Positions 33,201-60,570 of a DNA stretch of 64,000 nucleotides are shown here, piece by piece. The stretch's first letter is position 1, and every line of letters starts with the position of its first letter. The DNA is from Myxococcota bacterium (GTDB lineage: Bacteria > Myxococcota_A > UBA796 > UBA2385). The stretch is taken from assembly GCA_044344255.1 (NCBI GenBank), contig JBIJDH010000020.1, positions 64,001 to 128,000 on the forward strand, written 5' to 3'. The notes under the pieces were generated by a model. That model did not search any database and was not told the DNA's origin. It saw only the letters and a program-made list of their open reading frames with translations. Position numbers and translations under genes: made by a program.

Positions 33201-33362
33201 AAGCAGCCCGTGACCGACGCCTACGGCCGCCGCATCCGCCTCTCCCAGCTCCCGCCCGACCTCCTCGCCCTCACCGACCCGCGCGCCGTCGTCATCGACG
33301 GCACCCACCTCCCTGAAGACATCGAGAACTGGTCCGCCTGGGTCGCCCGGGAGCAGCCATGA
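30255..33362 (+). CDS. A2M-like N-terminal chain (MG domains), with no bait, TED or C-terminal part
   Basis: ITDRPLYEPG (MG2); VEPFTLPRFRVEV; YSSGAPVAGA; LSSDKRVYAPGE..IGVDQSL; N-terminal TM/signal. The start is uncertain. Confidence 0.8.
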   Translation: MPTCGRCGVAEGSENSTERLKRKGKKVLAWTLGSMGLLALLCASRVTCLSSWALYGVRIPECPSGDLRQTAELEASSLRRNSVGYVTLRASAHYTTGQADQDQSAYVHRLDGELSLVDASGKVTPLEPEDGWDEDGVTLSAQIKLPEVPDGDYTLRGVVSTPIGESTVEAPLPIYAPARVHVITDRPLYEPGNSMAFRAVVLRAADLAPLDGRPGKWIVKDPSGEVLLEEKAPAGEWGVVSGSFPIDREATSGPWTVSWVSGDASADAVVTVEPFTLPRFRVEVTPNQGWYRPGDRPVVTGRVVYSSGAPVAGAAVELNWSVSGDWPPPTDWLEGALPKEAITDNDGRFVLTLPQIPADLQGRSTLSASVAATDPAGDRVGGGLSLLLSEDPLQVTAVTELGDGLVEGFNNRMYLRATTPTGDPLVGTTLRLRPSYDPTAKPREAKTDEDGVAAFQVDPGPAINVVIPAKPYRPPAREPGVSRSNTQALLGNGEDELPLADQLALDRLVGGLQDCARFVSGSENAHVALVIEASGAIRDAVALGRPGECLAAGLRGRSLSATGTTRVYSVDYSITDQDLPKVSYSQDEATGSNGEVSELLNLAVLDARSCLPADLSDTDLGQALLWRVRAGSTVIEPSWASNGEGTALRPDTVACLKERLPPRRLPEPADEDALAVVTFAVSPSPRASAERPQPTTLLGYSFRVSAGEGDEKIGETTLVQRPGTVPNLRIRATPVLAKAGDAVEIELLRGPDFNSELPEKLQMTSPKFKALEVELDKETRKTTFTLPPDAEGWFQVSVMGALARVFVAPKSQLQLELSSDKRVYAPGETATLGLLTTEGGQGVQAAVTLIGVDQSLGQLAPLPGADHMGGLRPKVTTNQAAFDILDGEALSLGRVRGANAAAAVVLRVSDVPQPEDLDRYTSASGRGRFDAVADLTDHFYTVLGELHNAVRAWEKAAGKDEKMKPEKMAELWETALEAAAGKKQPVTDAYGRRIRLSQLPPDLLALTDPRAVVIDGTHLPEDIENWSAWVAREQP

Positions 33363-35743
33363 GCCTCACCGCCCCCCGCGCCCTCCTCCCCCTCGGCCTC
33401 TCTGCGGTCGCCCTCGCGGGCTGCGCCGACCGTGAAGCGTCGAAGTCGGCCCCCCCCGCGCCGATGGAGGAGAGCGTCGAGCAGGACCTCCGCGCGATCG
33501 GCTACGACGGCGCTGGCATCGCCACCGGCGGCGCCGCGGCCCCCGCCTCCGCCGCGCCGATGGCCAAGAAAGAGGTTGGCCGGGTCGGCCGAAAGATGAA
33601 GGCCGACAAGCCCGCCGACGAGGCCCCGATGGCGGAGGCAGCGCCGAGCGAGGCCGACTCCGAGGGCGGCGAGGCGGCGCCCTCCCGCTCCTGGTTCCCC
33701 GAGACCTTCCTCTTCCAGCCCCGGGTGGTGACCGACCGCGACGGCCGGGCCTCCGTCCCCGTGCGCATCCCCGACCGGCTCACCACCTGGCGCGTCCTCG
33801 GCCTCGCCTGGTCCCGACAGGGCGGTCAGTCCGGCGACACCACCGAGCTGCTCGGCACCCTGCCCGTCTATGTAGACCCTGTCCTCCCCGCCTTCCTCAA
33901 GGCCGGTGACCGCCTGCGCCTGCCCATCCAGGTCGTCAACACCACCGACGGCCCCCTCACCGTGCCCCTGCGGGTCAACGCCGGCGGCGCCGCGCACCTC
34001 GCGAGCGCTGGCACCGTCTCTCTCCCCGCCGGGGGGAGCCGCGTCTCCTATGTCGAGCTCTACGCCGAGCAGGCCGGCACCGTCTCCCTCGAGGCCTCTA
34101 TCGGCAGCAAGGACGCCGTCGTGCGCACCTTCCCCGTCGAGCCCGTCGGCCGCAAGCTCGAGCAGACCCGCGGCGGCACCCTCGCCGCCCCCCGACAGGT
34201 CGAGCTCATCGGCGCGAGTGACCTGGACCCCGCCAGCGCCCGCGTGCGCCTCCTCGTCTATCCGGGCGCCAAGGCCATCCTCCAGAGCGAGCTCGCCACG
34301 GCGTTGGACCGCGGTGGGGTCGCCTCGACAGGCTATTCGCTGCTCCTATCGGGACAGGGCGCCGCCCTACTGCAGTCCCTCGGCGTCCCCGTCTCCGCCA
34401 CCGGCGCCGACGATGACGCCCGCGCCGCCGCTTCCGCCCTCCACGACATGGGCCTCCTCGCCGGCCAGCGGGCCGTCCGCTTCGGCCGCGCGCCGGACAC
34501 CGCCAGCGCCGCCCTCCTCGCCGAGGGCTGCCTCGCCCACCCCGAGAGCCCCGTCATCGCGCGCCTGGGCGAGCGACTCCTCGGCCAGCTCGTCGCAGGG
34601 CAGCGCCCCGACGGCACCTTCGGCGGGGACAGCAGCGGCGCCTGGACGCTCCAGCGCCTCCTCCTCGCCACCGCAGACGCCGCCGCCACCGTCCGCCGCG
34701 CCGCCCAGTCGCCGACCGGGGACAGAGACCTCGACGCCAAACGAAAGCGCGACGCCGCCGCCGTCTCCCTCCGCGCCGGCGGCGCCTTCGAGCGCTACGC
34801 CGCCCAGGTCACCGACCCCTACACCGCCGCCGCCATCCTCCGCTCCGGCGCCATCTCCGGCGACCTCGCCGCCACGCTCCTCGAGCGGGTCGAGTCCGGC
34901 CTCGTCGAGAACCTCGACGGCTCCCGGTCCCTCCCCGTCCCCGAGGGCGTCGTCCGCGCCGACGGTGCGGTCCCCTCCGGCGTCGAGGCCACCGCGATGG
35001 CCGTCCTCGCCCTCGAGGGCCGCGGAAAGGACGACACGGTCGCCGATCTCGGCGCCTCCCTCCTCGGCGCCTGGCGCCCCGGCCGCGGCTGGAGCGACGG
35101 CCGGACAGACCTCCTCGCGCTGCAGGCCGTGCTCGCCCTCTTCAAAGACCCCATGCCGAACACGGTGACCGTCACCCTCTCGATGGACGGCGCCCCGGTC
35201 GGAAAGAAGGTGCTGGGCCTCGCCGAGCTCGATGAGGTCTCCCTCCTCGACCTCCCCGCCACCGCCGCCCGCGGCCTCCACACCTGGACCGTCTCCGCCG
35301 AGCCCGCCGTCCCCGGCCTCGGCTTCGCCCTCACCCTCGAGAGCTGGGTGCCCTTCGTCGCCACCCCCCAGAACGGCCTCGAGCTCCAGGTCACCACCGG
35401 AGAGGCGCCGGCGGTCGGTCGAAAGGTGCCCGTGATGGTGCAGGCCGCCGCACCCGCCGGGATGGCCCTCGTCTATCGACAGGAGCTCCCGGCTGGCGTC
35501 GTCCCCGATATGGACAGCCTCCAGGCTCTCGTGACGAGCGGCACGATCTCGAAATTCGACACCGAGGACGGCGCCCTGTCCTTCAACATCCCCGCCCTGT
35601 CACCCGGGCAGGTCTTCTCCGCCGGCTATGCGCTCGTACCCACCCTCGCAGGCACGCTCCACAGCGGGCCCGCCTCGCTCAGCCCCGCGGCGGACCTCGA
35701 CGTGGCCGCGCTCTCTGTGCCGGGGGTGTGGACGGTGCGGTGA
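33359..35743 (+). CDS. A2M-like C-terminal chain, lipoprotein, no thioester motif (copy 1)
   Basis: LAGC lipobox; low-complexity segment; RSWFPETFLFQP, IPDRLTTWR, PAFLKAGD, QRPDGTFG; no CxEQ. ATGA overlap with the upstream gene. Confidence 0.85.
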   Translation: MSLTAPRALLPLGLSAVALAGCADREASKSAPPAPMEESVEQDLRAIGYDGAGIATGGAAAPASAAPMAKKEVGRVGRKMKADKPADEAPMAEAAPSEADSEGGEAAPSRSWFPETFLFQPRVVTDRDGRASVPVRIPDRLTTWRVLGLAWSRQGGQSGDTTELLGTLPVYVDPVLPAFLKAGDRLRLPIQVVNTTDGPLTVPLRVNAGGAAHLASAGTVSLPAGGSRVSYVELYAEQAGTVSLEASIGSKDAVVRTFPVEPVGRKLEQTRGGTLAAPRQVELIGASDLDPASARVRLLVYPGAKAILQSELATALDRGGVASTGYSLLLSGQGAALLQSLGVPVSATGADDDARAAASALHDMGLLAGQRAVRFGRAPDTASAALLAEGCLAHPESPVIARLGERLLGQLVAGQRPDGTFGGDSSGAWTLQRLLLATADAAATVRRAAQSPTGDRDLDAKRKRDAAAVSLRAGGAFERYAAQVTDPYTAAAILRSGAISGDLAATLLERVESGLVENLDGSRSLPVPEGVVRADGAVPSGVEATAMAVLALEGRGKDDTVADLGASLLGAWRPGRGWSDGRTDLLALQAVLALFKDPMPNTVTVTLSMDGAPVGKKVLGLAELDEVSLLDLPATAARGLHTWTVSAEPAVPGLGFALTLESWVPFVATPQNGLELQVTTGEAPAVGRKVPVMVQAAAPAGMALVYRQELPAGVVPDMDSLQALVTSGTISKFDTEDGALSFNIPALSPGQVFSAGYALVPTLAGTLHSGPASLSPAADLDVAALSVPGVWTVR
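33653..35743 (+). repeat. Direct repeat, copy 1 (about 2.09 kb), matching 58473-60563
   Basis: Manual alignment at constant offset 24,820 with no indels; about 58 substitutions counted by hand (about 97% identity). Confidence 0.97.
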
Positions 35744-35872
35744 GTCGACAAGCTGCGCAGGGTCATGGAGACGGGCGAAGGCCAACCAGAGAGCGCCTCC
35801 GCCATCGGGTTCGCGACTATTGCTCCGGTGAGCAGGCTGCCCCGAAGGACGCGGCCTGCCGAGGGCCCGACC

Positions 35873-37852: not shown

Positions 37853-37891
37853 GCGCAGCTCTATGAAAGGCGGCATCCGCCCCGACCAGGG

Positions 37892-37926
37892 CCCTCACCC
37901 TGTCCCTCCCCCACGAGGGGAGGGGG
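37892..37926. repeat. REP-like palindromic element of the CCCTCACCC..CCCTC(T)CCC..GGGAG(A)GGG type
   Basis: CCCTCACCCTGTCCCTCCCCCACGAGGGGAGGGGG, with stem CCCTCCCC/GGGGAGGG. Single copy in this window. Confidence 0.5.
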
Positions 37927-38106
37927 CCGGGAAGGGCGTGGAAGCGGGCCCTCGGCCAGAGCGGGGCGAGGAGGAGGCGCTGCACTTCGTGGAGGGGCGC
38001 TTCAGCGTCGATCTGCACGGGAAGCGGGCGCTGTCGCTGGCCCACGGAACGCGGGGCCAGTACACTGGGTCCGGGGAAACCGGTTCGAGCCCAGCCAGGC
38101 GCACTC

Positions 38107-39798: not shown

Positions 39799-39825
39799 GA
39801 GACGGTGCGCGAGCTCGGTCGCGGC

Positions 39826-41523: not shown

Positions 41524-41637
41524 AGCAGATCCTAGGCTCGTGACTCGCCCGACCACTCTACCCGAGCGACGAGGTCGGGCGGCCCCCTGTGCTACCCTCC
41601 CAGGGTGCAGCCACCCCCGGAAGAGAGCGCGACCCTG

Positions 41638-43356: not shown

Positions 43357-43405
43357 GATCCAGGCGGGGCGGGCGGGCCCGAGGCTGAGCGGAGCGGCTC
43401 AGGCC

Positions 43406-44215: not shown

Positions 44216-44422
44216 GCGGACTCCGTATTCCGATGGGTTTTACGCCCCCGGCCACCCGATGTCAACCGCCGGTCAGCGGCCTGGGTCCCGCGGGTCCCCT
44301 CGAAGCGGACGACCCGCTCCTTCGTCGGGATCGGCCCGAGCACCTTCACCGGCGCAGTCATCGCGCCGATCTCACAAGGCCCTGACCTCGATTCGAAGGG
44401 ACCTGGATATCATGATCCGCGT

Positions 44423-46768: not shown

Positions 46769-46808
46769 GTCCCTTGCCCAGGACGGGACACCGAGCGGGT
46801 GGCCCAGT

Positions 46809-47924: not shown

Positions 47925-47953
47925 GCGGGGCCTCTGTCGAAGGGTCGGATGGG

Positions 47954-47989
47954 GTTAGAGACCACAGATGAGTTAGAGACCACAGATGA
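47954..47989. repeat. Perfect 18-bp tandem duplication GTTAGAGACCACAGATGA x2, copying the end (ICGL*) of the cytochrome c gene
   Basis: Units at 47954-47971 and 47972-47989. Confidence 0.95.
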
Positions 47990-48401
47990 GATAGATATTG
48001 AGCAGATATTTCTCATCGTCGGTGAGCCCACCGGCGGGAGGCATGTCCTCCTGCTCCAACATGCGCACGATGATCCGTTCCTTCCAGGTACGGATGTCGG
48101 CCTCTGTGTCAAAGGTCACCGCTTCTGGGGCCCCGTATCGTTTCGGTGTATCGGTCGCATGGCAGCCCTCACAATGGGCCAGAAATTTCCCTTGTGCGTA
48201 CCCCTCCCAGGTGACCGCCGGCGCGCTCTCGCAGTTGTTGGTGGCGGTGTCATCGGCGCCCGCGCTGTCACCCCGGGTGGAGGCGCTGTCCTCGGGCGTC
48301 GCGGTGCCCGCCCCGGCAGCGCAGCCAACCAGACCGGCGCCCAACAAGACCGCGCACAAGGAGGGCGCTCCCGGTCGCTGCGGCTCAGGCGATGGCGGCA
48401 T
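47973..48401 (-). CDS. Small monoheme cytochrome c lipoprotein
   Basis: LVGC lipobox; CEGCH; MPP axial-Met motif. Confidence 0.8.
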   Translation of the reverse strand: MPPSPEPQRPGAPSLCAVLLGAGLVGCAAGAGTATPEDSASTRGDSAGADDTATNNCESAPAVTWEGYAQGKFLAHCEGCHATDTPKRYGAPEAVTFDTEADIRTWKERIIVRMLEQEDMPPAGGLTDDEKYLLNIYLICGL

Positions 48402-49671
48402 GAACAGGCTCCACGCCGGGCAGGAGCTCCTCAGAGTCTACGCCAGCGAGGGTCAGGAGGGTGGCGCCGATATGGTCGGGGAGCAGGGAGACGCCGCTCT
48501 CGGTCGTCTCGCCGGAGAGCAGATCCACCCTCTCGCCCCCACAGCTCTCGTCATAGGCCCCGATGGCCCGGCCACCCGCCACCCCGGCGCCGACCAACAT
48601 ACAGGAGGTGTATGTCCAGTGGTCCTTCCCGCCTCGATAATTATACTGCGGATATCGGCCCATCTCGGACATCACGACGATGGTGACCTCTTCGGCGAGC
48701 GTTCGTTCCACCTTTCCGGGCAGGGAGTCGAGGGTCTCCATGGTGGAGACGATCGCATCGAAGAGCTCCTCGAAATTGAGGGCCTGTTGGAAGTCATTCG
48801 AGTGGGTGTCCCACCCGAGGCCCTTCCAGCCGAGATGCCGCACCATGCCACACCGGGCGAGGTCATTGGCGAAGGCATTGACGAGGAGGTCCATCCCCTC
48901 GGTGAGGGTGTTGGAGGAGCCGAAGCGCAGGCTGTCGGCCAGGCCGCCGATACGGTCCATCCGCTCCTGTACACCTATGGAACGATCCAGCAGGAGCTTC
49001 TCGCGCCCCCGACCCGCCGCAGCGGCGAGCCGGTTCACCCGGGCCGTCACGAAGGCATCTTCGAGGGCCTCCTGAGAGGCCGGGGGCAGGCTCAGCGCCT
49101 GGTCGGCCCGGAGAAAGGCATCGCCGCTGATGAGATCGGGGAGCTGCCCCGAGCTGCCCACCCGGACCACCGCCGAGCCGCGATCATAGGTGAAGCTCGG
49201 CCCCGACAGGTGGATGAGGGGCAGCAGCAGGTCGGCGCCTGTGGAGGCGGCGATGAGCGAGGGCCAGTCATCGGAGGAGGGGAGCGAGGTGCCGGTCATC
49301 GCCAGCCGCACACAGGCGTCATGGGCGACCGAGCGCACCTCGAAGCCGTTGATGAAGCAGGTGCGGTCACCATATTGCTCCATGAAGGTGGTGACGCTGG
49401 GCCGACCCTCACTCTGAACATAGGGGATCCCATGGGCATTCGCCTCCACCGCATCGACCTCCATATCGATGCCGGCGGCGCCGAAGAGCGGGGCAAAGAG
49501 GCAGGTCTGGTCCCAGCCTCCCTGCGCGAAGACGAAGAGAAAGCGCCGCGCCGAGGGCTCCACCGCTCGACCGACCCCGGGCATCCACAACATCGCGGTC
49601 GGGAGGAGGGCCGAGGAGGCCGCGAGCAGCCCTCGACGAGACAGCGCGGAGGGTGGGGGCCGTTTGAGCAT
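48385..49671 (-). CDS. DUF1501-like Tat-exported protein
   Basis: SRRGLL Tat motif; FVFAQGGWD; GWDTHS; VMSEMGR.P; GKDHW; GAGVAGG. Confidence 0.82.
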   Translation of the reverse strand: MLKRPPPSALSRRGLLAASSALLPTAMLWMPGVGRAVEPSARRFLFVFAQGGWDQTCLFAPLFGAAGIDMEVDAVEANAHGIPYVQSEGRPSVTTFMEQYGDRTCFINGFEVRSVAHDACVRLAMTGTSLPSSDDWPSLIAASTGADLLLPLIHLSGPSFTYDRGSAVVRVGSSGQLPDLISGDAFLRADQALSLPPASQEALEDAFVTARVNRLAAAAGRGREKLLLDRSIGVQERMDRIGGLADSLRFGSSNTLTEGMDLLVNAFANDLARCGMVRHLGWKGLGWDTHSNDFQQALNFEELFDAIVSTMETLDSLPGKVERTLAEEVTIVVMSEMGRYPQYNYRGGKDHWTYTSCMLVGAGVAGGRAIGAYDESCGGERVDLLSGETTESGVSLLPDHIGATLLTLAGVDSEELLPGVEPVHAAIA

Positions 49672-49708
49672 CGCTACCTCGACCGGAACAGGAGACCGAA
49701 AGACAGGT

Positions 49709-49740
49709 TTCAATACGCCCAGAATTCAGTACGTCCAGAA
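49709..49740. repeat. 16-bp tandem duplication (2 mismatches) copying the gene end FWTY* as FWAY*
   Basis: TTCAATACGCCCAGAA (49709-49724) and TTCAGTACGTCCAGAA (49725-49740). Confidence 0.85.
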
Positions 49741-51432
49741 GGCGGGATCTCGGATCCAGACGGTGAGGAGGCTCGTCCAGGCCGCGAGCGGACCCTGCTC
49801 GGACTCCACGGCGGTCCACAGGGCCTCGTCCCGCACCAGCTCCACGGCATCCGGCCTCTGGCCATGGATGCGTCGATGCAGCGCGGTGAGCTCCGCGGTG
49901 AAGGCCTCGTCGCCGGGCCGGTCATCGAGGGTGATGGCCCCGAAGAGGGAGCGCGCCGCCCCCTCCGTGCCGAGCTCCTTCGCCACCACGGTCTCCGCGG
50001 CGGCCTCGGCGAGGCGCTTCATCACGAGGGCCCGGGTGAGCGTGGGCTCGCGCTCCGGCTGGGTGGTGTCATGGCCATCCATGCCGCCGGCCAAGACCCG
50101 GAAGCCGTAGACATCGTTCGTCAGCTCGTCGTAGCCGGTCCAGGTCCACTTGAAGCCGGTGAGATCGGCGACCGCCGACTCGAGCACCTCCGGGGCGAGG
50201 AGACGGCGGGTGGAGAGGCGGTTCTCCTCCTCCGCAGGGGCGCCGTCGAGCAGGCTCCCCACCCGATAATCCTCCCCCTTCACGAGCGCCTGGATCAGCA
50301 CCTTGTGTCGCAGCCCCCCCGCCTCGAAGGTTGCCTGCACCGACTGGAGCGTTGAAAAATCACCGAGGTCTATCGGGCGCCGCCAGAGCGCCTTGGCCAT
50401 GGTCTGCACGGCGCAGCTCTTGAAGCGCGGGTCAGCGGCCAGCATGGGGCCCAGATCCGCGGCGTCCGCCATCGGCTGACCGAACCAGGCCATATCCTCA
50501 TCGAGGTAGTATTTTCCAAGCCCCTCCCTCTCGGGGTGGTACCGCACCACATCCTCCGGAGAGTACATATCGAACCACCAGAAGCCGAACATGGAGGCGG
50601 CGAGGGGATCGAGGGTGCTATGGCAGGTGACACAGGCAGGGTTGGTCTCGATGGCCTCATCGACGCTGCCTCCGTCGAGGATCTCAACCGCGTCGAACTG
50701 GATGGGGCGCGTGAGATAGTCTTCGCAGAGGAAGAGGCGGGACAGGGCCGCGGCCCGGCTGCGATTGAAATTGCTCGGGGTGGTGAAGTACCGCCACCAC
50801 AGGCCGTTCGTGGTCACGACACCGCCGGCCGGGCGATCATCGGTGTATCGGGCCACCCGCCACTCCTCCCCGACATCGGTCTCGTCCAGGGGCTCCAGGG
50901 GATAGAGCCAGAAGAGCATGTCATTCGCCATCGTGTAATCGGCGGTGGCCACGTCGGTCCAGGGCAGATCGCGCGTGGCGATATGGGCCATGAGACGGGG
51001 GGGCTCGTTGCCAATGGCGCGCAGGTAGGCGAAGTCCTGGTCGGGCGGCAGCCCCCACTCCCAGGAGCGGATGTTGAATTCCTCATTTCTTGTGAGGAGC
51101 TGCTCCGCGAAGAGATCGACCAGCCGCCCCTCGTAGCGGGGGTCGTCCAGAAAGCCCTCGATCATGCTGTCCACGAGAGCGGGATCGGCCGCTACCGCAT
51201 CGAGCTCGGCGAGGGTGGGCACCACGCCGCGGAGGTCGAGGCTGGCCCGGCGGAGCAGCGCAGGAGCGGGGAGCGAGGCCCCATAAAAGGTCGCCGCCGG
51301 GCGTGAGTCCGGTGGGGAGTCCGGTGGGGAGCCCTCCCCTCCTTCATCGGGGACCGTCGAGGGGGGGGTGGGACCGCTCTCGCACGCGACCATCAGGAGG
51401 GGCAGCCAGACAAGGTGTAACCGGCGAGTCAT
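49726..51432 (-). CDS. DUF1549/DUF1585/DUF1588-like lipoprotein with a CxxCH motif
   Basis: MVAC lipobox; LLRRASLDLRG..PT; NRSRA..FLC; CVTCHSTLDP. This is the usual partner type of DUF1501 genes. Confidence 0.75.
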   Translation of the reverse strand: MTRRLHLVWLPLLMVACESGPTPPSTVPDEGGEGSPPDSPPDSRPAATFYGASLPAPALLRRASLDLRGVVPTLAELDAVAADPALVDSMIEGFLDDPRYEGRLVDLFAEQLLTRNEEFNIRSWEWGLPPDQDFAYLRAIGNEPPRLMAHIATRDLPWTDVATADYTMANDMLFWLYPLEPLDETDVGEEWRVARYTDDRPAGGVVTTNGLWWRYFTTPSNFNRSRAAALSRLFLCEDYLTRPIQFDAVEILDGGSVDEAIETNPACVTCHSTLDPLAASMFGFWWFDMYSPEDVVRYHPEREGLGKYYLDEDMAWFGQPMADAADLGPMLAADPRFKSCAVQTMAKALWRRPIDLGDFSTLQSVQATFEAGGLRHKVLIQALVKGEDYRVGSLLDGAPAEEENRLSTRRLLAPEVLESAVADLTGFKWTWTGYDELTNDVYGFRVLAGGMDGHDTTQPEREPTLTRALVMKRLAEAAAETVVAKELGTEGAARSLFGAITLDDRPGDEAFTAELTALHRRIHGQRPDAVELVRDEALWTAVESEQGPLAAWTSLLTVWIRDPAFWTY

Positions 51433-52463
51433 GGTCGCCCCTGCGCAGCCACGAGGGTGGCGAGCGCGTCGAGCAGCGCCGGCCCCGGACAGAGCTCCCC
51501 CTGGTCCTGCCCATGCCAGGTGAAGGGCCCACAACCGCCGCATTCGGACAGGGTGACCGAGAACCAATGGCCCCCTGGATCTCGAACACCGATGAGCCCC
51601 ATCGGATCTCCACTGCAGACCGTCGTGTCGGTGACGAGCCCGGTGAACATGATATCCGCGGCCGGATTTCCAATCCCACCATCCAGCTGGAAGCGGGAGG
51701 TGTCCTCCCCATCCGAGGCGATCACAAAGAGGCCGACCTCCGCCTCGGCGCCGAGCCAGGTGGGATCGTCGTCCCGATGAAAGACCCCACCGGTGGCCGA
51801 GGTCCACTGATAGGTGCCGGTCTCATCAACGCTCCCGTCGAGCTCCAGCGTGCCGGCCCCCATGAGCTCCCGTCCGTCGACCTCGGTGATGGTGTAGTTG
51901 GTGAGCGCGTGAATGACCCAGGACATATCCGTATGTTCTTCAAAGTATTGGCTGAGCCCATGATACCGCACACCGGCGATCGAGGTACAATCCCCCTGCC
52001 ACTCCCCCTGGGCGCCGATGTCGTCCTCATCGTCCTTGAGAGGGCAGGAGGAGTCAGACCAGGTCATCAGCTCCTCATACGCATCCCGAATGGGGATGGC
52101 GTTGGGGATGCCGCCCTCCAGCGCCGCCTCAAGGGCCGCTCCGGCCTCCTCCGCCGTCCAGACGGGGCTCCCGGGATCGATCCACGCTCCGCCCTCGGAG
52201 GCGCTGTCGGTGCCACCCCCATCCCCCGCGTCACCGCCATCGCCACCGTCCCCGCCGTCGGCCGGCTCTCCTTCGTCCTCGGTGAGGTGACACAGGCCGT
52301 CCGACTCGAACCGCGTGGAGCCCGCGGGGCAGGGGGCCGGGCCACAGCCCCCCATCGCGACGATCAGGAAGCCGGACGCAGCGCCCCAAGTCAGCCGGAA
52401 GCCGTCCCACCAGCCGGGGCGGGGGCCCAGCAAGCGCCTGGGGTGTTGAAGGGGGCTCGACAT
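51429..52463 (-). CDS. Hypothetical lipoprotein with Gly/Asp linker and Cys pairs
   Basis: MGGC; DGG linker; CP, C..C and LC motifs; ATGA overlap with the downstream gene. Confidence 0.7.
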   Translation of the reverse strand: MSSPLQHPRRLLGPRPGWWDGFRLTWGAASGFLIVAMGGCGPAPCPAGSTRFESDGLCHLTEDEGEPADGGDGGDGGDAGDGGGTDSASEGGAWIDPGSPVWTAEEAGAALEAALEGGIPNAIPIRDAYEELMTWSDSSCPLKDDEDDIGAQGEWQGDCTSIAGVRYHGLSQYFEEHTDMSWVIHALTNYTITEVDGRELMGAGTLELDGSVDETGTYQWTSATGGVFHRDDDPTWLGAEAEVGLFVIASDGEDTSRFQLDGGIGNPAADIMFTGLVTDTTVCSGDPMGLIGVRDPGGHWFSVTLSECGGCGPFTWHGQDQGELCPGPALLDALATLVAAQGRP

Positions 52464-52834
52464 TCATTGACTCTACCACGGGTCCCGGGGAGCTGCCCCG
52501 CGCAGGCCAGCGCCCCATGGAGGGCCGAGCTCAGCCGCCTGGAGGTTGGGTCCAGGTCTCTCCCTCGCTCCGACCCGGATGGTGGATCTCCTCTCCTCTT
52601 CGGGGTAGCCCTCCACGTCCTCTTGAGGAGGTGGCAGGTGGACGGCGCGCGACTCCGGGCGATGTTGAACGGGATGCTCAAACAGGGCGTGGGCGGCTGG
52701 ACGACCCTGCACGTCCGCCGCTCCCTCGCCGACGCCGTCGCCGAGGCGGCCGACAAGGACAGGACGGCCGGCCACGCCCAGGTGGCCGCCCTGCTGGGCG
52801 CGCCCTTCCAAGCTCTGCCGCCCGCGAGCCCTCC

Positions 52835-52954
52835 ATGAAACAAGCGCTCCCCTGGCTCCTCGGGGCCGCCCTCGTCGTGGTCGCGGTGGCCGCCTACCTG
52901 CTGTGGTCGGCCCCGGCGGAGAACACCCTGCCAACCGTCTACGGGGTCTTCTGA
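52835..52954 (+). CDS. 39-aa single-TM micropeptide with C-terminal xxYxxF motif (DltX-like)
   Basis: MKQALPWLLGAALVVVAVAAYLLWSAPAENTLPTVYGVF*; GC3-rich codons; TGATG overlap with the SGNH gene. Confidence 0.72.
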   Translation: MKQALPWLLGAALVVVAVAAYLLWSAPAENTLPTVYGVF

Positions 52955-53955
52955 TGCACCCCGACCAGCTCCGCCGGGCGGCCGTCGCCGTCATCGTCCT
53001 CGCCCTCCTCGTCGCCGGGGGGGTCACCCTCCAGCGCCACCGCAACCGCATCATCAGCGATCCGATCACCCGGGAGGCGCCGGAATTAGGCGGGCGGGCC
53101 CAGGTGCTCATCCCTAACCTCCAGGGGGCCACCGTCTGGGTGCCCGATCGCCCCCATGACCCCTCCGAGCTGCGCGGCGACGACCGCTTCGAGCGCATCC
53201 GCCGCCTGCGCAGCTTCCAGGTGTGGACCAACAGCATCGGCCTCCGGGGCCCCGAGCTGGCCAACCCCCGCACCGGCCCGCGCATCCTCTGCCTCGGCGA
53301 CTCGGTCACCTTCGGCTGGGGCGTGCCCTACGAGGAGAGCTACCCCGCCCGCCTCGCCGCCAAGCTCGGCCTGGAGGTGGTCGACGCCGGCGTGCCCGCC
53401 ATGAGGCCGCACAGCATCGCCAACTGGGCCCAAGGCCACGCCGCCGCCCTGCAGCCCGACCTCGTGATCTTCACGAGCCGGCCGGACTGGTCAGAGCCCG
53501 AGGCCGTGCTCGGCTACCAGCGGGCCGTCCGCCAGGTGCAGCAGAGCATCGGCCGGGCCCGGCTCGTCATCGTGATGCCGGCCGTCAGCACCTTCGACCC
53601 CAAGGGCTCCCAGGTCTACGCCCAGGAGGCCGCCGAGGTGCGCGCCGCCCTGCCCGACGTGCCCCTCATCGACCTCACCGGCGCCTTTCGCGCGGCCCTG
53701 CCCCTGCCCGGTGTGATCATGGAGCAGTCCGACGGGCACCAGCGGGTCTACGATCTGCCCGGACACAGCCTGCGCATCGACGCGATCGCACCCCAGGTGG
53801 GCCTCGCCCCCGAGATCGTCGCGATGTTTGAGGATGACCCCAACGTCGCCGAGCCGCTCTTCTACGACGGCGGCCACCCCGACACGGCCGGCTACGCCCT
53901 CTTCGCCGACACCCTCGCCGCCTGGTTGGGCGAGCAGGGCCTCGTCCCTCGCTGA
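52954..53955 (+). CDS. SGNH/GDSL family protein with N-terminal TM anchor
   Basis: TNSIGLRG, CLGDSVTFG, DAGVP and DGGHP. Confidence 0.85.
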   Translation: MHPDQLRRAAVAVIVLALLVAGGVTLQRHRNRIISDPITREAPELGGRAQVLIPNLQGATVWVPDRPHDPSELRGDDRFERIRRLRSFQVWTNSIGLRGPELANPRTGPRILCLGDSVTFGWGVPYEESYPARLAAKLGLEVVDAGVPAMRPHSIANWAQGHAAALQPDLVIFTSRPDWSEPEAVLGYQRAVRQVQQSIGRARLVIVMPAVSTFDPKGSQVYAQEAAEVRAALPDVPLIDLTGAFRAALPLPGVIMEQSDGHQRVYDLPGHSLRIDAIAPQVGLAPEIVAMFEDDPNVAEPLFYDGGHPDTAGYALFADTLAAWLGEQGLVPR

Positions 53956-53967
53956 GTCAGCGCCCCC

Positions 53968-54819
53968 TTAGGGAAGCGGCGCCCAACGTCCATCGGACAG
54001 GGCCGCGGCCGCGGTCTGGGCCAGCGCGGCATGACCCGCCGCCGTCAGGTGGATGGGATCGGTCGTAAAGAAGGCGCTGGCCGGCATCTCCGGGGCAAAG
54101 GTGGGCCCCACCGACCGCGCCGCTTCGATGTAGGCGGTGAGCGGGGTCGGCTGGGGAAAGACCATCAGATACACCGCCGCCGGCCGGGCCGCGACCGCGA
54201 GGGCGCGCAGGTTCTCGGCGAACTGGGCCGGGCTCACCCGCGCCACCACCCCCGCCGCCGCGGGGGGCGCCGGCCGCGAGCCGCGCAGCAGGCGGATCAG
54301 CGACAATTGCGCGCCCGGCGGCGTCGGCTGAGCGACGGCGTCCTCCTGGGGCGCCATTTGGGCGTCACGCACCCCAAAGGCGAGGATCAACCGAGTTGGA
54401 TGCAGGGCCAGCAGCGTCGCCCCCGCCCGCCGCGCCTGGGCGGTGGACCAGCCCGGCACCCCACCATTGACCACCGCCGCGCCGCTCTCCGCTGCGAGGC
54501 GGGCCGGCCAGGCCTCGGTCGCCGCCACCCCCCAGCCAAAGCTCGTGCTGCAGCCCATCACCAGGGTGAAGGGCCCGTCGGCCGGCGGCGGATCGCCGCG
54601 CAGGCCAAGGGAATTGGTGACCACCCGAAAGGAGCCCTCCCCGCCCGGCACAGGCCGATCGAGGCCGGGCCGCAGGGTCCAGGCCCAGACGAGGTCGCCA
54701 TCGTAGAGGCCCCGGTCCGGCAGCCCCGCCAGCCGCAGCCCCCCCTCCACCAGGCCGAGGAGGCCGATGGTCACGATCCCGCCGAGGATCGGCTTCATCC
54801 AGGTGGGGATCCCAGCCAT
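53968..54819 (-). CDS. SGNH/GDSL family protein with N-terminal TM anchor
   Basis: TNSLGLRG, MGCSTSFG, NGGVPG and DPIH. Confidence 0.85.
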   Translation of the reverse strand: MAGIPTWMKPILGGIVTIGLLGLVEGGLRLAGLPDRGLYDGDLVWAWTLRPGLDRPVPGGEGSFRVVTNSLGLRGDPPPADGPFTLVMGCSTSFGWGVAATEAWPARLAAESGAAVVNGGVPGWSTAQARRAGATLLALHPTRLILAFGVRDAQMAPQEDAVAQPTPPGAQLSLIRLLRGSRPAPPAAAGVVARVSPAQFAENLRALAVAARPAAVYLMVFPQPTPLTAYIEAARSVGPTFAPEMPASAFFTTDPIHLTAAGHAALAQTAAAALSDGRWAPLP

Positions 54820-54838
54820 GCGCGCCTCCCGGGCAGCC

Positions 54839-55939
54839 TCAACCACCGCCGTCGAGCAGGTCCATCTGTACGCTCGGACCGCCGAGCGTACCCATGCCAT
54901 CGAAGGGATCGGAGGGGGCGATCACCGGGGCGGTCTCGCTTGCCACAGGGGCACGGGCGGGCCAGCCCGCCTGGACCAGGGCATCGGCCACCCCCTCTGC
55001 GAGGAGGCGACAGGCGTCGGCGGTGGGGTGCAGCTCATCCTGAAAGAGCGCGCGGCTCGGGAGGCCACTCGACCGATAGATCGACAGGGCCTCCACCCGC
55101 GGCACATGGTGCGCCTCGGCGACCGCGGACTGTACTGCGAAATAAGGAGCCCACTCCTGGCTCGACTGGAGCCCGTCCTGCAACATCGGCGCGTTGGCGA
55201 GCGTGAGCACCACGACCCCCACACCCCGCTCCCGCGCCCCATCGAACATGGCACTCAGGTTGCGAGCATAATCAGCGAGGGGCACCCGACGGACGCCCCG
55301 CTGGCCGGGGGTGGGCCAAGCGATCTTTCGAGCGGCCGGTCGACCGAGGGCCCGATTGACCCCCATCCGGGTCTGTCGGAAGAGGGCGCTGTGGACGAGC
55401 AGCCGCTCCACTCGCGCCATCGGGCTCCCCGCCGCGCGTAAGAGGTCGGCATCCCGAAAGGCGTCGAGGTTCGAGTCGCTCCACAGATTCCCGACGATGA
55501 GCGTGTGGGGCTGCATCTCCCACCCGACCTCCTGGAGCGCCGCGAGGGTCTGCACCGTGGAGTAGCCGGGGACCGCGAGGGTCCCGACCCGGGCGGAGAT
55601 GGACCTCGCGTTCAGCACAACCTGGAGCTGATCGTGCAAGGTCTTGCCGTCGGGGAGGCCGTCGCCGAAGATGCTGGAGTCACCGGTGCTGAGGAGGAGG
55701 GGGGCCCCCGCCGGGCCGGGTGCGTGGACAGCCCGGTTTCCTTCACGGCTCAGCCGATAAAACGGAGGCCCACGGTCATCAGGGGGGGGCTCCCCCAGGG
55801 CCCAGATTCGGGTGGGATCGGGGTTGAGCACGATGCCACGGGCCGGCGGGGTGGGATCGGGCAGCACCCGCGCGATGAGCTCGGCCAGGAGCACCAGGAG
55901 GAGGCCGATCCCGAGCGCGCCCAGCCGACGACGGTTCAT
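54839..55939 (-). CDS. SGNH/GDSL family protein with N-terminal TM anchor
   Basis: TGDSSIFG, AVPGYS and FQDELHP. Confidence 0.85.
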   Translation of the reverse strand: MNRRRLGALGIGLLLVLLAELIARVLPDPTPPARGIVLNPDPTRIWALGEPPPDDRGPPFYRLSREGNRAVHAPGPAGAPLLLSTGDSSIFGDGLPDGKTLHDQLQVVLNARSISARVGTLAVPGYSTVQTLAALQEVGWEMQPHTLIVGNLWSDSNLDAFRDADLLRAAGSPMARVERLLVHSALFRQTRMGVNRALGRPAARKIAWPTPGQRGVRRVPLADYARNLSAMFDGARERGVGVVVLTLANAPMLQDGLQSSQEWAPYFAVQSAVAEAHHVPRVEALSIYRSSGLPSRALFQDELHPTADACRLLAEGVADALVQAGWPARAPVASETAPVIAPSDPFDGMGTLGGPSVQMDLLDGGG

Positions 55940-56007
55940 TCCTGCTCCCTCCCAGGCGGCGAAGCGTAGCCCAACCCAGGCAGGGGGGCACATGCTAGGA
56001 TGCCGCG

Positions 56008-57594
56008 ATGAACTCCTCGCCGCTGCTGCTCCTCACCCTCTGCCTGTCCTGTGGCGGGGAGACCCGCCCTACCCCACCCGCACCGGTCGGACCGCCGCCG
56101 GGCAAGCCCGCGGGTTCAGGTGGCCCCGGAACGCCGGGGGGGAGGGCATCTTTCGACCCCGGGCCGGAGAACCTCACCGACGCCTGGACCGCCGAGCTCG
56201 GCGCCGCCGTCGATCCCATACCCCAACCGCCAACCTGCCCGGACGCCGATCAAGACGGCTTCTTCGCCGCCACCGCCTGCCCGGGTGCCGATGCCGCCAC
56301 CCTGGACTGCGATGACCAGGACCCCACGGTCACCCCCGCGACCGAGCGCTGGGTCCGGCCCGGGCCCTTCCTCATGGGCAGCAGCTCCACTCAGGCCGGG
56401 GCCGACGAAAAGCCCGTCCACGTCGTGCAGATGTCGGGCTACTGCCTCGAGCGAACCGAGGCTTCGGTGGCCGATCTCGCCGCCTGGTTCCTCTCTACCG
56501 GCCGGAAGCCCGAAGGCGCCGATGTGCGCAGCCTCGACACCGACGGCCGGGCCGAGCTTGGCCGGGAGGCCCAGCCCGCCGAAGGGCTCACCTGGGCCGA
56601 AGCAGACGCCTTCTGTCGCAGCCGCGGCAAGGCCCTCCCCACGGAGGCCCAGTGGGAGAAGGCAGCCCGCGGCGGCTGCGAGCTCGGAAGCAGCCCCACA
56701 GCCTGTGACCCGGCCGACCTCCGGCCCTATCCCTGGGGGGACGCGGCCCCCACCTGCGCCCTCGCCAATCACCAGCACACCGGGGGGGGAGTGCCTACGC
56801 TCTGTGTCTCCGATACGAGTCCGGCGAATGATCCCGCCGCCAACCTGGGCCCGTATGGGCATCAGAACCTGGCCGGCAATGTGTGGGAATATACGGCCGA
56901 CCTCTGGCACCCCCATGTGTATGGCCCCGGCCGGAGAGACCCCGGTGGCCCGACCCCGGGCGCCTCTGCGCTGCCCCATGTGTTACGCGGCGGCGGCTGG
57001 AACACCTTCTCCACCAATATGCGGGTGGCCAATCGATTCACCGACCTCGTCATGGGCTCCGCGGTGGGTGTCCGCTGTGCGCGCCCCACGGTGGAGCCGG
57101 TTCCTGACCAGCCGGTTCCGCTTCAAATGGTCAAGGTGTCGGGCACCCTGAAGCGGGATGAGGGCAGCTTCACGGGCCGCGCCGTCTATGTTGTCGCCTT
57201 CGACAATGAGGACGCTGACCCCCAAAGCGGAATGGTACCGCCGGGGCGCTCACCGGTCGCGGAGCGGCGCTTCCCGCCGAGCGGCGCGACGGAGCAGGAA
57301 TTCAGCATCGACGTCCCGGCCGGGGCCAGCTATCGAATTTTCGCCTCCTTCGACGACGGCACAGGGAATGACAAAGACGCCTATCGCTCCTCCTCGGGGA
57401 GCGGCGGCATCGGGATGGTGCAAGAGAGCATCTCAACCGTCTCCGGCCCGGTCGAAGGGATCTCCATCACCATCGCAAAGATGCCCAAGCCGCCTCCCGG
57501 AGGTCGTCCGCCGGGGCCACCGCCCGATGGACAGGGTCCGCCGGGGCCACCGCCCAATGGACAAGGTCCGCCGAATGGGAGCCCGCCTCGGTGA
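56008..57594 (+). CDS. FGE-sulfatase domain lipoprotein with one MopE-like motif and a Pro-rich tail
   Basis: LSC lipobox; DADQDGF..DCDD; LPTEAQWEKAARG; YPWG; LAGNVWE; RGGGW; GVRC; PPGPPP(D/N)GQG repeats. Confidence 0.85.
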   Translation: MNSSPLLLLTLCLSCGGETRPTPPAPVGPPPGKPAGSGGPGTPGGRASFDPGPENLTDAWTAELGAAVDPIPQPPTCPDADQDGFFAATACPGADAATLDCDDQDPTVTPATERWVRPGPFLMGSSSTQAGADEKPVHVVQMSGYCLERTEASVADLAAWFLSTGRKPEGADVRSLDTDGRAELGREAQPAEGLTWAEADAFCRSRGKALPTEAQWEKAARGGCELGSSPTACDPADLRPYPWGDAAPTCALANHQHTGGGVPTLCVSDTSPANDPAANLGPYGHQNLAGNVWEYTADLWHPHVYGPGRRDPGGPTPGASALPHVLRGGGWNTFSTNMRVANRFTDLVMGSAVGVRCARPTVEPVPDQPVPLQMVKVSGTLKRDEGSFTGRAVYVVAFDNEDADPQSGMVPPGRSPVAERRFPPSGATEQEFSIDVPAGASYRIFASFDDGTGNDKDAYRSSSGSGGIGMVQESISTVSGPVEGISITIAKMPKPPPGGRPPGPPPDGQGPPGPPPNGQGPPNGSPPR

Positions 57595-58081
57595 GCGCCG
57601 AGCGACTGCTCCTGACCCTCAGCCTCCTTGGGGCCTGCGGGGGCGCCTCGCAGGAGGCCCCGGTCGCCCGTGCGCCCTCCACCCCCCGGCGGGGCTACAT
57701 CTCGGGCGGAGACGGCAGCGCCGCTGGGCGCGTGGTGACCTTCCGCGGCCGGACGAGGTGCAGGACGACACCTGGCGCGCGGCGGCCCACTACACCCCCG
57801 AGCTCCGCCTCATCGGCGCCGAGCCCGCCTTCGACCTGGGTAGCTACCACCTCGGAGAGGCCGCCCGCGGGCTGCTCGCCCTCCGCGCCCGCCCCGAGGA
57901 CGACGCCCTCGTCGCCCCCCTCCGCCACCCGCCGGTGACGCCCGTGCGCGCCCCGACGGCAGAGGCCCTCTGCGCGCCCTGGCAGCGCGCCTGGGCCGGC
58001 TCACAGGAGCGCCCCGTCGAGGAGCTCCCCGACCTGGCACAGCGCGTACTGAGCGTGGGTCGGTATCCGTCCCCGGCGTAA
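57591..58081 (+). pseudogene. Probably frameshifted small lipoprotein gene sharing its signal peptide with A2M copy 2
   Basis: Starts MSAERLLLTLSLLGACGG. GC3-rich coding pattern switches frame near 57748 (FRG-PDEVQDDTW...). 57598-57665 is about 88% identical to 58198-58265. Confidence 0.55.
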
Positions 58082-58130
58082 GGGCCGCCCCCGCTGAGCG
58101 TTAGGCTCGGGTCACCGCCCCGAGGTCCCG

Positions 58131-60563
58131 ATGCGCCCCCGCAGCTCCCGCCCCTGCAGCTCCCGTCCCTGCAGTCCCGGCCCCCGCAGCCCTCGCCCCG
58201 AGCGCCTGCTGCTGACCCTCAGCCTGCTCGCGGCCTGCGGGGGGGTCTCGCAGGAGGCCCCCGTCCCCACCTCGGCGCGCGACGAGGGCAAACAGATGGC
58301 CCAGGAGCTCGGCTACGCCGAAGAGGAGGCGCAGGCGGAGGCCCCGTCGCCCAAGGGGGCCGGCGGGCCGAGGCGGAGCCAGAACCGAGCGGCGCCCGCC
58401 CGGGGCGGCGGGACGAAGAAGGAGTCGAAGGACGCCGAGAAGGCAGACCCCGCCGTCCAGGGGGACTCTCCTGCCGACCCCGAGGGCGGCGAGGCGGCCC
58501 CCACCCGCTCCTGGTTCCCCGAGACCTTCCTCTTCCAGCCCCGCGTGGTGACCGACCGCGACGGCCGGGCCTCCGTCCCCGTGCGCATCCCCGACCGGCT
58601 CACCACCTGGCGGGTGCTCGGCCTCGCCTGGTCCCGACAGGGCGGTCAGTCCGGCGACACCACCGAGCTGCTCGGCACCCTGCCCGTCTATGTAGACCCT
58701 GTCCTCCCCGCCTTCCTCAAGGCCGGTGACCGCCTGCGCCTGCCCATCCAGGTCGTCAACACCACCGACGGCCCCCTCACCGTGCCCCTGCGGGTCAACG
58801 CCGGCGGCGCCGCGCACCTCGCGAGCGCTGGCACCGTCTCTCTCCCCGCCGGGGGGAGCCGCGTCTCCTATGTCGAGCTCTACGCCGAGCAGGCCGGCAC
58901 CGTCTCCCTCGAGGCCTCTATCGGCAGCAAGGACGCCGTCGTGCGCACCTTCCCCGTCGAGCCCGTCGGCCGCAAGCTCGAGCAGACCCGCGGCGGCACC
59001 CTCGCCGCCCCCCGACAGGTCGAGCTCATCGGCGCGAGTGACCTGGACCCCGCCAGCGCCCGCGTGCGCCTCCTCGTCTATCCGGGCGCCAAGGCCATCC
59101 TCCAGAGCGAGCTCGCCACGGCGCTGGACCGCGGTGGGGTCGCCTCGACAGGCTATTCACTGCTCCTGTCGGGACAGGGCGCGGCCCTCCTCCAGTCCCT
59201 CGGCGTCCCTGTCTCTGCCGCTGGCGCAGACGACGACGCCCGCGCCGCCGCCGCCGCCCTCCACGACATGGGCCTCCTCGCCGGCCAGCGGGCCGTCCGC
59301 CTCGGGCGCGCGCCGGACACCGCCGCCGCTGCCCTCCTCGCCGAGGGCTGCCTCGCCCACCCCGAGAGCCCCGTCATCGCCCGCTTGGGCGAGCGACTCC
59401 TCGGCCAGCTCGTCGCAGGGCAGCGCCCCGACGGCACCTTCGGCGGTGACAGCAGCGGCGCTTGGACGCTCCAGCGCCTCCTCGTCGCCACCGCCGACGC
59501 CGCCGCCACTGTCCGCCGCGCCGCCCAGTCGCCGACCGGGGACAGGGACCTCGACGCCAAACGCAAGCGCGACGCCGCCGCCGTCTCCCTCCGCGCCGGC
59601 GGCGCCTTCGAGCGGTACGCCGCCCAGGTCACCGACCCCTACACCGCCGCCGCCATCCTCCGCTCCGGCGCCGTCTCCGGCGACCTCGCCGCCACGCTCC
59701 TCGAGCGGGTCGAGTCCGGCCTCGTCGAGAACCTGGATGGCTCCAAGTCCCTCCCCGTCCCCGAGGGCGTCGTCCGCGCCGACGGTGCGGTCCCCTCCGG
59801 CGTCGAGGCCACCGCGATGGCCGTCCTCGCCCTCGAGGGCCGCGGAAAGGACGACACGGTCGCCGATCTCGGCGCCTCCCTCCTCGGCGCCTGGCGCCCC
59901 GGCCGCGGCTGGAGCGACGGCCGGACAGACCTCCTCGCGCTGCAGGCCGTGCTCGCCCTCTTCAAAGACCCCATGCCGAACACGGTGACCGTCACCCTCT
60001 CGATGGACGGCGCCCCGGTCGGAAAGAAGGTGCTGGGCCTCGCCGAGCTCGATGAGGTCTCCCTCCTCGACCTCCCCGCCACCGCCGCCCGCGGCCTCCA
60101 CACCTGGACCGTCTCCGCCGAGCCCGCCGTCCCCGGCCTCGGCTTCGCCCTCACCCTCGAGAGCTGGGTGCCCTTCGTCGCCACCCCCCAGAACGGCCTC
60201 GAGCTCCAGGTCACCACCGGAGAGGCGCCGGCGGTCGGCCGAAAGGTGCCCGTGATGGTCCAGGCCGCCGCACCCGCCGGGATGGCCCTCGTCTATCGAC
60301 AGGAGCTCCCGGCTGGCGTCGTCCCCGATATGGACAGCCTCCAGGCCCTCGTGACGAGCGGCACGATCTCGAAATTCGACACCGAGGACGGCGCCCTGTC
60401 CTTTAACATCCCCGCCCTGTCACCCGGGCAGGTCTTCTCCGCCGGCTATGCGCTCGTACCCACCCTCGCAGGCACGCTCCACAGCGGGCCCGCCTCGCTC
60501 AGCCCCGCTCAAGATCTCGAGGTGGCGGCACTGTCCGTCCCAGCAGTGTGGACGGTGCGCTGA
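58131..60563 (+). CDS. A2M-like C-terminal chain, lipoprotein, no thioester motif (copy 2)
   Basis: LAAC lipobox and a different N-terminal segment; near-identical to 33359..35743 from EGGEAAP onward. Confidence 0.85.
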   Translation: MRPRSSRPCSSRPCSPGPRSPRPERLLLTLSLLAACGGVSQEAPVPTSARDEGKQMAQELGYAEEEAQAEAPSPKGAGGPRRSQNRAAPARGGGTKKESKDAEKADPAVQGDSPADPEGGEAAPTRSWFPETFLFQPRVVTDRDGRASVPVRIPDRLTTWRVLGLAWSRQGGQSGDTTELLGTLPVYVDPVLPAFLKAGDRLRLPIQVVNTTDGPLTVPLRVNAGGAAHLASAGTVSLPAGGSRVSYVELYAEQAGTVSLEASIGSKDAVVRTFPVEPVGRKLEQTRGGTLAAPRQVELIGASDLDPASARVRLLVYPGAKAILQSELATALDRGGVASTGYSLLLSGQGAALLQSLGVPVSAAGADDDARAAAAALHDMGLLAGQRAVRLGRAPDTAAAALLAEGCLAHPESPVIARLGERLLGQLVAGQRPDGTFGGDSSGAWTLQRLLVATADAAATVRRAAQSPTGDRDLDAKRKRDAAAVSLRAGGAFERYAAQVTDPYTAAAILRSGAVSGDLAATLLERVESGLVENLDGSKSLPVPEGVVRADGAVPSGVEATAMAVLALEGRGKDDTVADLGASLLGAWRPGRGWSDGRTDLLALQAVLALFKDPMPNTVTVTLSMDGAPVGKKVLGLAELDEVSLLDLPATAARGLHTWTVSAEPAVPGLGFALTLESWVPFVATPQNGLELQVTTGEAPAVGRKVPVMVQAAAPAGMALVYRQELPAGVVPDMDSLQALVTSGTISKFDTEDGALSFNIPALSPGQVFSAGYALVPTLAGTLHSGPASLSPAQDLEVAALSVPAVWTVR
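58134..58193. repeat. Imperfect 15-bp tandem repeat x4 at the start of A2M copy 2
   Basis: CGCCCCCGCAGCTCC / CGCCCCTGCAGCTCC / CGTCCCTGCAGTCCC / GGCCCCCGCAGCCCT. Confidence 0.8.
58473..60563 (+). repeat. Direct repeat, copy 2, matching 33653-35743
   Basis: Same manual alignment as copy 1 (offset 24,820, no indels). Confidence 0.97.
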
Positions 60564-60570
60564 GCGCGCC

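Follow-up and report, generated by a model that had tools for sequence, protein, structure and literature searches.

Bacterial alpha-2-macroglobulins (A2Ms) have so far been described as single chains of two types. According to the cited papers, the type I protein ECAM has a lipoprotein-type anchor and a disordered bait (PMC4498604), and the type II protein MagD traps the protease non-covalently after bait cleavage (PMC5764988). In human A2M the trigger consists of a plug (R732, F735) that passes through a channel with F224-V225-L226 as its roof (PMC9352918), and the bait sequence alone sets specificity (PMC8267569). Splice variants of a tick A2M present a variable bait on a constant scaffold (PMC7962413), and gene conversion takes place among paralogues at the TEP loci of Anopheles (PMC2576239). 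Here we describe a split A2M-like protein encoded in a 64,000-nt stretch of a Myxococcota genome (assembly GCA_044344255.1, contig JBIJDH010000020.1, positions 64,001 to 128,000; hereafter the window). One gene encodes the N-terminal half of the protein (N-chain), and two genes encode near-identical C-terminal halves (C-chains) that differ in the segment, or head, preceding their common scaffold. The literature within reach, from which subscription journals are mostly absent, yielded neither a two-gene bacterial A2M nor alternative C-chains.

The scaffold-coding blocks of the two C-chain genes are 97.18% identical over 2,092 nt without a gap in a blastn alignment, and a base-by-base comparison over 2,091 nt counted 59 mismatches, in agreement with the indel-free identity of about 97% reported in an earlier note made from the sequence alone. 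At the protein level, 10 of 685 scaffold residues differ. Identity begins abruptly 33 nt upstream of the Arg codon of the RSWFPETF motif, as that note had described, and stops 1 base past the stop codon. Ahead of this boundary, the heads are alike in length, composition and layout, and when aligned by force they agree at 28 of 89 positions, with a z score of 1.3 relative to shuffled sequences after removal of the shared last nine residues. The N-terminal segments thus appear unrelated in sequence, as had been claimed. A tblastn search of all contigs of the source assembly (95% complete) found a single N-chain, two C-chains of the split type and three single-chain A2Ms, which extends the observation of a single N-chain gene from the window to the whole assembly. 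Among metagenome contigs, no further near-identical C-chain allele above 54% identity was returned, and close records may be missing from that collection.

The duplication is unlikely to be an assembly artefact, a concern raised at the outset and addressed here with short-read contigs. We examined Logan contigs from four public runs (X1, X5, X9 and X10); such contigs cannot phase internal variants of the copies. Both head-scaffold junctions are spanned with no differences by contigs of all four runs. In run X1, possibly the source sample of the assembly, the shared pieces have a depth of 60 compared with 31.5 and 32.9 for the flanks, i.e., approximately twofold, and a contig of 22,875 nt fits 35659-58533 by its two ends, connecting the tail of copy 1 with the beginning of the copy 2 scaffold. 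The shared pieces have about 1.5 to 1.8 times the flank depth in X10, and X5 and X9 are without clear doubling.

Profiles and structural models support the proposal that the two genes encode complementary halves of one protein of A2M/TEP fold. The predicted N-chain comprises a membrane helix at residues 23 to 46, MG1 to MG4, two AgmX/PglI-like inserts, MG5, the first half of MG6, a linker and a helical tail, and thus carries the MG1-MG6 ring found throughout the superfamily. Its Pfam matches are MG2 and, weakly, A2M_BRD, and a profile of 78 N-chain sequences matches the N-terminal part of A2M and the C3, C4 and C5 beta chains. The N-chain model, with a mean predicted local distance difference test (pLDDT) score of 91.6, has the C4 beta chain as its top fold match (Z 15.8, root mean square deviation [rmsd] 5.5, 438 residues aligned) and compares with CD109 at Z 15.1; models were compared to structures with VIA-align. 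In the C-chain, the head is followed by the second half of MG6, which we take to be MG6b, then by MG7, CUB, a TED without thioester, CUB and MG8, the order seen in A2M/TEP proteins. A profile of 44 C-chain sequences finds human A2M, the match starting at residue 729 (E 5e-19), as well as the C3 and C5 alpha chains, and scores animal A2M far above E. coli YfhM, a weak match (E 4e-5). The C-chain model (pLDDT 92.4) aligns to TEP1r over 621 of 689 residues with Z 25.1 and an rmsd of 14.7, the domains being placed differently; it matches residues 729 to 1468 of human A2M at Z 22.6, and its TED alone matches the TE domain of C5 at Z 22.7 with an rmsd of 3.5. Because profiles and models agree, the gene break can be placed within MG6, at the site of the cleavage that yields the two chains of complement proteins.

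The residues of the human trigger have counterparts in both chains. Arg5 and Phe8 of the C-chain scaffold, invariant in 44 of 44 sequences, align with R732 and F735 of human A2M, and the F275/L277/P278 stretch of the N-chain matches the F224-V225-L226 linker between MG2 and MG3, with F275 kept in 75 and L277 and P278 in all 78 sequences. The split protein therefore has both the plug (alpha'NT) and the hydrophobic MG2-MG3 linker stretch of the superfamily. In contrast, the CXEQ thioester motif is absent from all 159 split-family scaffolds checked, and the C-chains have a 5-residue gap at that place relative to P0002, a single-chain relative, so that any trap would be non-covalent. The 200 scaffold residues that, according to the models, are expected to touch the N-chain are identical in the two copies, and over C-chain residues 106 to 310 the copies differ at a single position. 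The features discussed are collected in Table 1.

Table 1. Position of the split A2M genes, of their parts and of other features in the window
Feature	Coordinates	Strand	Remarks
N-chain gene, 1,035 aa	30255-33362	+	Equivalent of the complement beta chain
Two tandem AgmX/PglI C-terminal (TonB_C-like) domains in the N-chain	31695-32300	+	Invariant Cys pair in each
C-chain copy 1, 794 aa	33359-35743	+	ATG overlaps the N-chain stop codon (ATGA); lipoprotein-type signal peptide, Cys22
Head 1, about 87 aa, low-complexity, A/E/P/G/K/M	33425-33685	+	At bait position, flanked by the lipidated Cys and the R-x-W-F-P-E plug
Shared block, copy 1 side	33653-35744	+	Identical tracts alternate with diverged ones
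C-chain copy 2, 810 aa	58131-60563	+	Open frame; lipoprotein-type signal peptide, Cys36; no adjoining N-chain gene
Head 2, 89 aa, A/G/E/P/K/R	58239-58505	+	Bait position; alignable to head 1 in composition only
Shared block, copy 2 side	58473-60564	+	Partner of 33653-35744
Broken or chimeric open reading frame behind an FGE-family gene	57591-58081	+	Coding bias changes frame near 57710-57770
Single-chain bacterial A2M, 2,075 aa	7444-13671	-	CAEQ thioester motif; A/G/P/M-rich stretch at bait position; outside the split system

Placement of the variable segment at the bait position, proposed earlier, agrees with the profile match, since the segment ends where the bait of human A2M ends. Composition points in the same direction. 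The median K/R content is 12.4% in 60 disordered heads of the family and 2.5% in 40 disordered lipoprotein tethers of the source genome, of which one reaches the level of heads 1 and 2; Met accounts for 4.1% in the former and 0 in the latter. Signal-peptide lipoboxes and tethers were collected for this purpose with regular expressions that we wrote ourselves, not with a trained predictor. The heads, which are low-complexity with 0.1% Cys, thus differ from the D/T/G-repeat tethers of the genome and resemble the stretch at the bait position of its single-chain A2M, a likeness that the earlier note had also pointed out.

The mismatches in the shared block are clustered. Two runs of 507 and 492 nt are free of them, a situation not reproduced in any of 20,000 random placements, while 34 fall within 34304-34926 and 15 within the final 55 nt; the synonymous difference between the scaffolds is 0.70 in the final 18 codons vs 0.076 overall. 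Comparison with a related lineage is informative about how this mosaic arose. The head of P0260 is identical to head 1 at 56 of 88 positions and that of P0008 to head 2 at 84 of 89, but the scaffolds of these two proteins differ from one another at 7 sites and from each of the window scaffolds at 23 to 30. They have 18 scaffold residues in common that neither window copy possesses, and no site groups by head type; the copy 2 scaffold has 10 differences to copy 1 vs 23 to its own orthologue. Scaffolds therefore group by lineage and heads by locus, arguing for old paralogues homogenised by gene conversion rather than for a fresh swap. We infer that the window copies have evolved in concert in this manner, and with the patchy mismatches this replaces the initial idea of "swapped" N-termini. 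An abrupt boundary at the head would be expected from conversion that depends on homology, with or without selection. A recent duplication of the scaffold alone behind a foreign lipoprotein was also considered and is disfavored: the homologous stretch runs as far as the stop codon, its tail diverged at synonymous sites, and head 2 is family-like in length and composition.

A search of the genome's relatives, suggested earlier together with that of the genome itself, showed that two C-chains with one N-chain are not peculiar to this assembly. In the order, C-chains are present in 92 and N-chains in 97 of 154 genomes; a phylum-wide sample gave matches in 33 of 401 genomes, 31 of them in the same order. 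The split form is common among myxobacteria, to which the named homologues belong; they include Myxococcus xanthus, Archangium, Corallococcus and Cystobacter. The N-chain gene lies directly upstream of the C-chain gene in 73 of 80 GTDB loci, and the other seven start no more than 440 nt from the end of a contig. One C-chain is present in 74 of the 92 genomes and two or more in 18, among which nine have an N-chain for each C-chain and nine, i.e., the source genome G000 and G010, G068, G079, G080, G081, G082, G090 and G104, have extra C-chains lacking one. These extras form a tandem run behind the N-chain gene in five cases, including G082, where the run is on a single contig, and often as one run of overlapping genes. 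On a quick tree that took in scaffolds of at least 580 aa and left out shorter ones, the extra C-chains fall in about six separate groups, two of them weakly supported, and by this sequence evidence they arose several times in the order. Surplus N-chain matches were found in three genomes, on short contigs or as fragments. In G080, which belongs to another family, two C-chains are 97.8% identical over 1,961 nt with heads that are 26% identical. Thus, the earlier proposal of one N-chain with alternative C-chains stands as a recurrent gene pattern, without the swapping of heads that it included. Both the extra C-chains without N-chain in nine of 92 genomes and the repeated pattern of near-identical scaffolds with unrelated heads are new here.

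Other arrangements of the two chains were seen in the collection. At L045:7460-14270 of G080, three tandem C-chain genes follow one N-chain gene, two of them being the 97.8% identical pair. At L149:206-2173 of G108, N-chain residues 50 to 466 are joined directly to C-chain residues 458 to 685 in an internally deleted hybrid. P0001 (1,801 aa), at first sight a true N+C fusion, was rejected as a frameshift read-through on account of its out-of-frame sequence and internal signal peptide, and no other protein longer than 1,089 aa is present among the best 150 representatives.

We tentatively propose, with a confidence a little short of even, that the single N-chain and the two C-chains are halves of a thioester-less cage, that the heads serve as tether and bait, and that conversion keeps the scaffolds alike. 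Each C-chain would complete MG6 with the single N-chain, as the coupling of the genes and their complementary domains suggest, and thread its plug through the MG2-MG3 channel of the latter, the membrane anchor holding the free end of the bait in place of an unbroken chain. Cleavage of the head would set the plug free and make the cage collapse, so that the protease would be held non-covalently as with MagD, or envelope damage would be signalled. Conversion would homogenise the scaffold and stop at the diverged head, thereby preserving the fit to the single N-chain, and the range of triggers would grow with a second head. It is plausible from their sequences that the two heads differ in bait specificity. 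A broader and more doubtful version is that splitting the gene made the bait an exchangeable N-terminal module with its own anchor, after which the C-chain alone was duplicated repeatedly, heads diverging or being replaced by captured envelope modules while conversion kept the scaffolds compatible with the N-chain, to yield a protease sensor with variable heads on a constant scaffold.

A number of observations weigh against this proposal, and alternatives are considered in this and the following two paragraphs. The heads might be flexible tethers drifting almost neutrally, with copy 2 redundant or differently regulated and the boundary a passive end of conversion without selection on baits; we regard this as possible, if on the unlikely side. 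The ratio of nonsynonymous to synonymous differences (pN/pS) in heads is 0.67 (0.291/0.433, from 45 non-independent pairs with uncertain alignment), and a value below 1 means that positive selection is not shown. The apparent excess of head pN (0.29) over scaffold pS (0.19) was rejected as a sign of such selection, head pS being raised as well (0.43). Orthologous heads fall to 26 to 30% identity, a background level, while scaffolds keep 64 to 80%; head divergence alone is therefore no sign of modularity. For head variability relative to other disordered linkers in orthologous neighbors, about three linkers were usable. Heads 1 and 2 contain similar numbers of potential cut-site residues (K6 R4 M4 and K6 R5 M1, respectively), so broad proteases would cut both, and head 2 resembles the family profile in composition only, 8% of shuffled sequences scoring as high. 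In eight of ten within-genome C-chain pairs the scaffolds are only 34 to 72% identical, which makes homogenisation the exception, and most genomes, as noted above, have a single C-chain. Two outside scans supplied 160 loci (flanks of 5 to 8 kb, many truncated), none of which showed a tandem C-chain, and the habit of carrying extra C-chains therefore looks concentrated in this order. P0008 and P0260 are not known to share one genome, and assemblers can mix near-identical copies. On the other side, the bait-like composition of the heads is unlike that of the genome's tethers, the plug and channel residues show little or no variation, and the extra copies are repeatedly C-chains.

A rather improbable alternative is that the protein is not a protease trap but an envelope scaffold tied to myxobacterial Ton/Glt-type machinery, the head being a swappable adaptor for anchoring or coupling. 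The two AgmX/PglI-like inserts of the N-chain would suit such a role. They were detected by hhalign against 13 AgmX-like domains of the source genome plus the seed, with probabilities of 84% (E 8e-6) and 59% (E 9e-5) compared with 12% for a control Ig domain, and C515, C549, C610 and C655 are invariant in all 78 sequences; they went unreported in the fold search with the whole model, a procedure that hardly probes inserts of this kind. Loss of the thioester would also fit. In addition, four of 202 heads tested match a linker of GltG type (G106b, G001b, G002:C415 and G105b), the best of them matching a source-genome protein with E 2e-15 and 40% identity over 101 aa. We take GltG, named here after NCBIfam, to act in gliding. 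Other heads have ExbD-like, RcpC or multi-helix domains, which would fit a tether or adaptor role; the RcpC/CpaB match has a Pfam E of 4e-7, and the ExbD-like one is a lead only (Pfam E 0.025, atlas 0.86). The head slot thus accepts foreign envelope modules. However, GltG-like heads are rare and absent from both window copies, a scan of 46 open reading frames (ORFs) detected no gene for a motor or for gliding next to the locus, and the trigger residues are kept. The GltG-like heads, homologous to the periplasmic linker, are located at L057:8359-8760 (minus strand) and in L023, L025 and L055. C-chains with long folded N-terminal domains, either RcpC/CpaB or the weak ExbD-like lead, are found at L053:8067-9131 (minus strand) and L025:1595-3046 (plus strand) and in P0351, P0406 and P0309. 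A multi-pass membrane N terminus of about 400 residues replaces the lipoprotein signal at L055:3698-5012 (plus strand), in L146 (minus strand) and in P0338.

It is very improbable that copy 2 is a relic, silent or in decay, whose integrity is due solely to conversion from copy 1, or that it is a silent donor cassette. Copy 2 is located outside the operon, downstream of a broken ORF that shares its signal peptide: the 74 nt at 57595-57668, which encode the signal peptide of that ORF, are 86% identical to the signal-peptide sequence of copy 2, 600 nt downstream. The matching near-identical copy of G080, the middle one, is frameshifted in its head, either genuinely or by sequencing error. Yet head 2, which is beyond repair by conversion, is open, has a G+C content at third codon positions of 0.93 and is nearly unchanged in the second lineage, and a plausible ribosome-binding site, GAGG, is found 6 nt ahead of the ATG. 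A scan for promoters and terminators around copy 2 gave no signal above chance. Finally, it is extremely unlikely that one copy is an assembly artefact of a strain mixture: the genome seems to have been assembled from a metagenome, and mixed scaffold haplotypes, which may themselves be assembly chimeras, occur in cluster members, but the junctions recovered in all four runs, the equal flank depths with doubled shared pieces in X1 and the single contig across the interval argue for two loci.

The surroundings of the locus were also inspected. The second part of the broken ORF ahead of copy 2 has strong coding bias and no homologue in 40 relatives, and the bases of the ORF are identical in contigs of X1, X9 and X10. 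Four short imperfect 15-nt repeats at 58132-58203 extend the n-region of the copy 2 signal peptide, and a repeat 79% similar to them is located at G000:C29:130022-130093. Between the two C-chain genes are a cluster of GDSL-like hydrolase genes (46809-55993, three Pfam hits) and a stretch of lower G+C content at 47 to 52 kb (63 to 69% vs 71%). The ORFs adjoining the split locus gave no Pfam or NCBIfam match, no search having been aimed at Mag proteins, and Pfam showed no PBP1c match among 46 selected ORFs of the window. The other single-chain A2Ms of the source genome are encoded at G000:C43:42841-47664 and G000:C52:413154-418667; the CxEQ motif is present in the window and C52 proteins and was not found in the C43 copy. 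Nine metal-binding repeats of the MopE type, together with Chlamydia-PMP-like repeats, are present in a 1,307-aa protein encoded at 3471-7394, where the DNA itself has strong internal repeats.

Should one N-chain function with alternative C-chains, bacteria would diversify protease recognition by exchange of parts, and the system would offer a natural chassis for inhibitors or sensors with swappable baits. A sensor with variable heads would represent the prokaryotic equivalent of baits varied by alternative splicing, and a C3-like protein whose two chains are genetically encoded. If the heads are no more than tethers, the locus would be a clean case of concerted evolution of a duplicated half-gene, of modest interest. 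In either event, the two-gene form in M. xanthus makes the plug-in-channel trigger amenable to testing, since no covalent link joins the bait to the N-terminal half.

Among described bacterial proteins, MagD, the type II A2M of Pseudomonas aeruginosa, is like the split protein in having an A2M fold without CXEQ, a segment kept at the bait position and an association with the membrane. However, MagD is one chain whose gene is in an operon of six genes, whereas the split protein is encoded by two overlapping genes split at the bait, each product with an anchor, and has alternative C-chains. Type I A2Ms (ECAM/YfhM of E. coli and SaA2M of Salmonella) share the MG ring, CUB, TED and C-terminal MG domain as well as the lipoprotein-type anchor and the disordered bait, and structure 4u48 matches the window models at Z 18.2 (C-chain) and 13.8 (N-chain); the split protein departs from them by its lack of the CXEQ thioester, its two chains and its AgmX/PglI-like inserts. 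The single-chain, TEP-like bacterial proteins P0002 to P0005 align colinearly with each of the two split chains (hhalign, 99.7% and 99.8%) but keep CFEQ where the split family has its gap, and their architecture is likely the ancestral state. P0002 also has a weak GspG-like match ahead of its bait (E 0.037).

In complement C3, C4 and C5, human A2M, CD109 and insect TEP1, the place of the chain break, between the halves of MG6, and the R732/F735 plug with its MG2-MG3 linker are as in the split protein. The animal two-chain forms arise from one precursor cut by proteolysis, whereas here the chains come from separate genes; moreover, the split protein has no folded ANA domain, C345C domain or thioester, and its C-chain model ends with MG8. 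The tick and Anopheles parallels differ in that the system described here is bacterial and works through duplication of the C-chain gene alone, and conversion at TEP1 creates divergent alleles, whereas here it would homogenise the scaffold. The split protein is thus a member of the A2M/TEP superfamily by its predicted fold, and by analogy it would work most like MagD while being built like C3.

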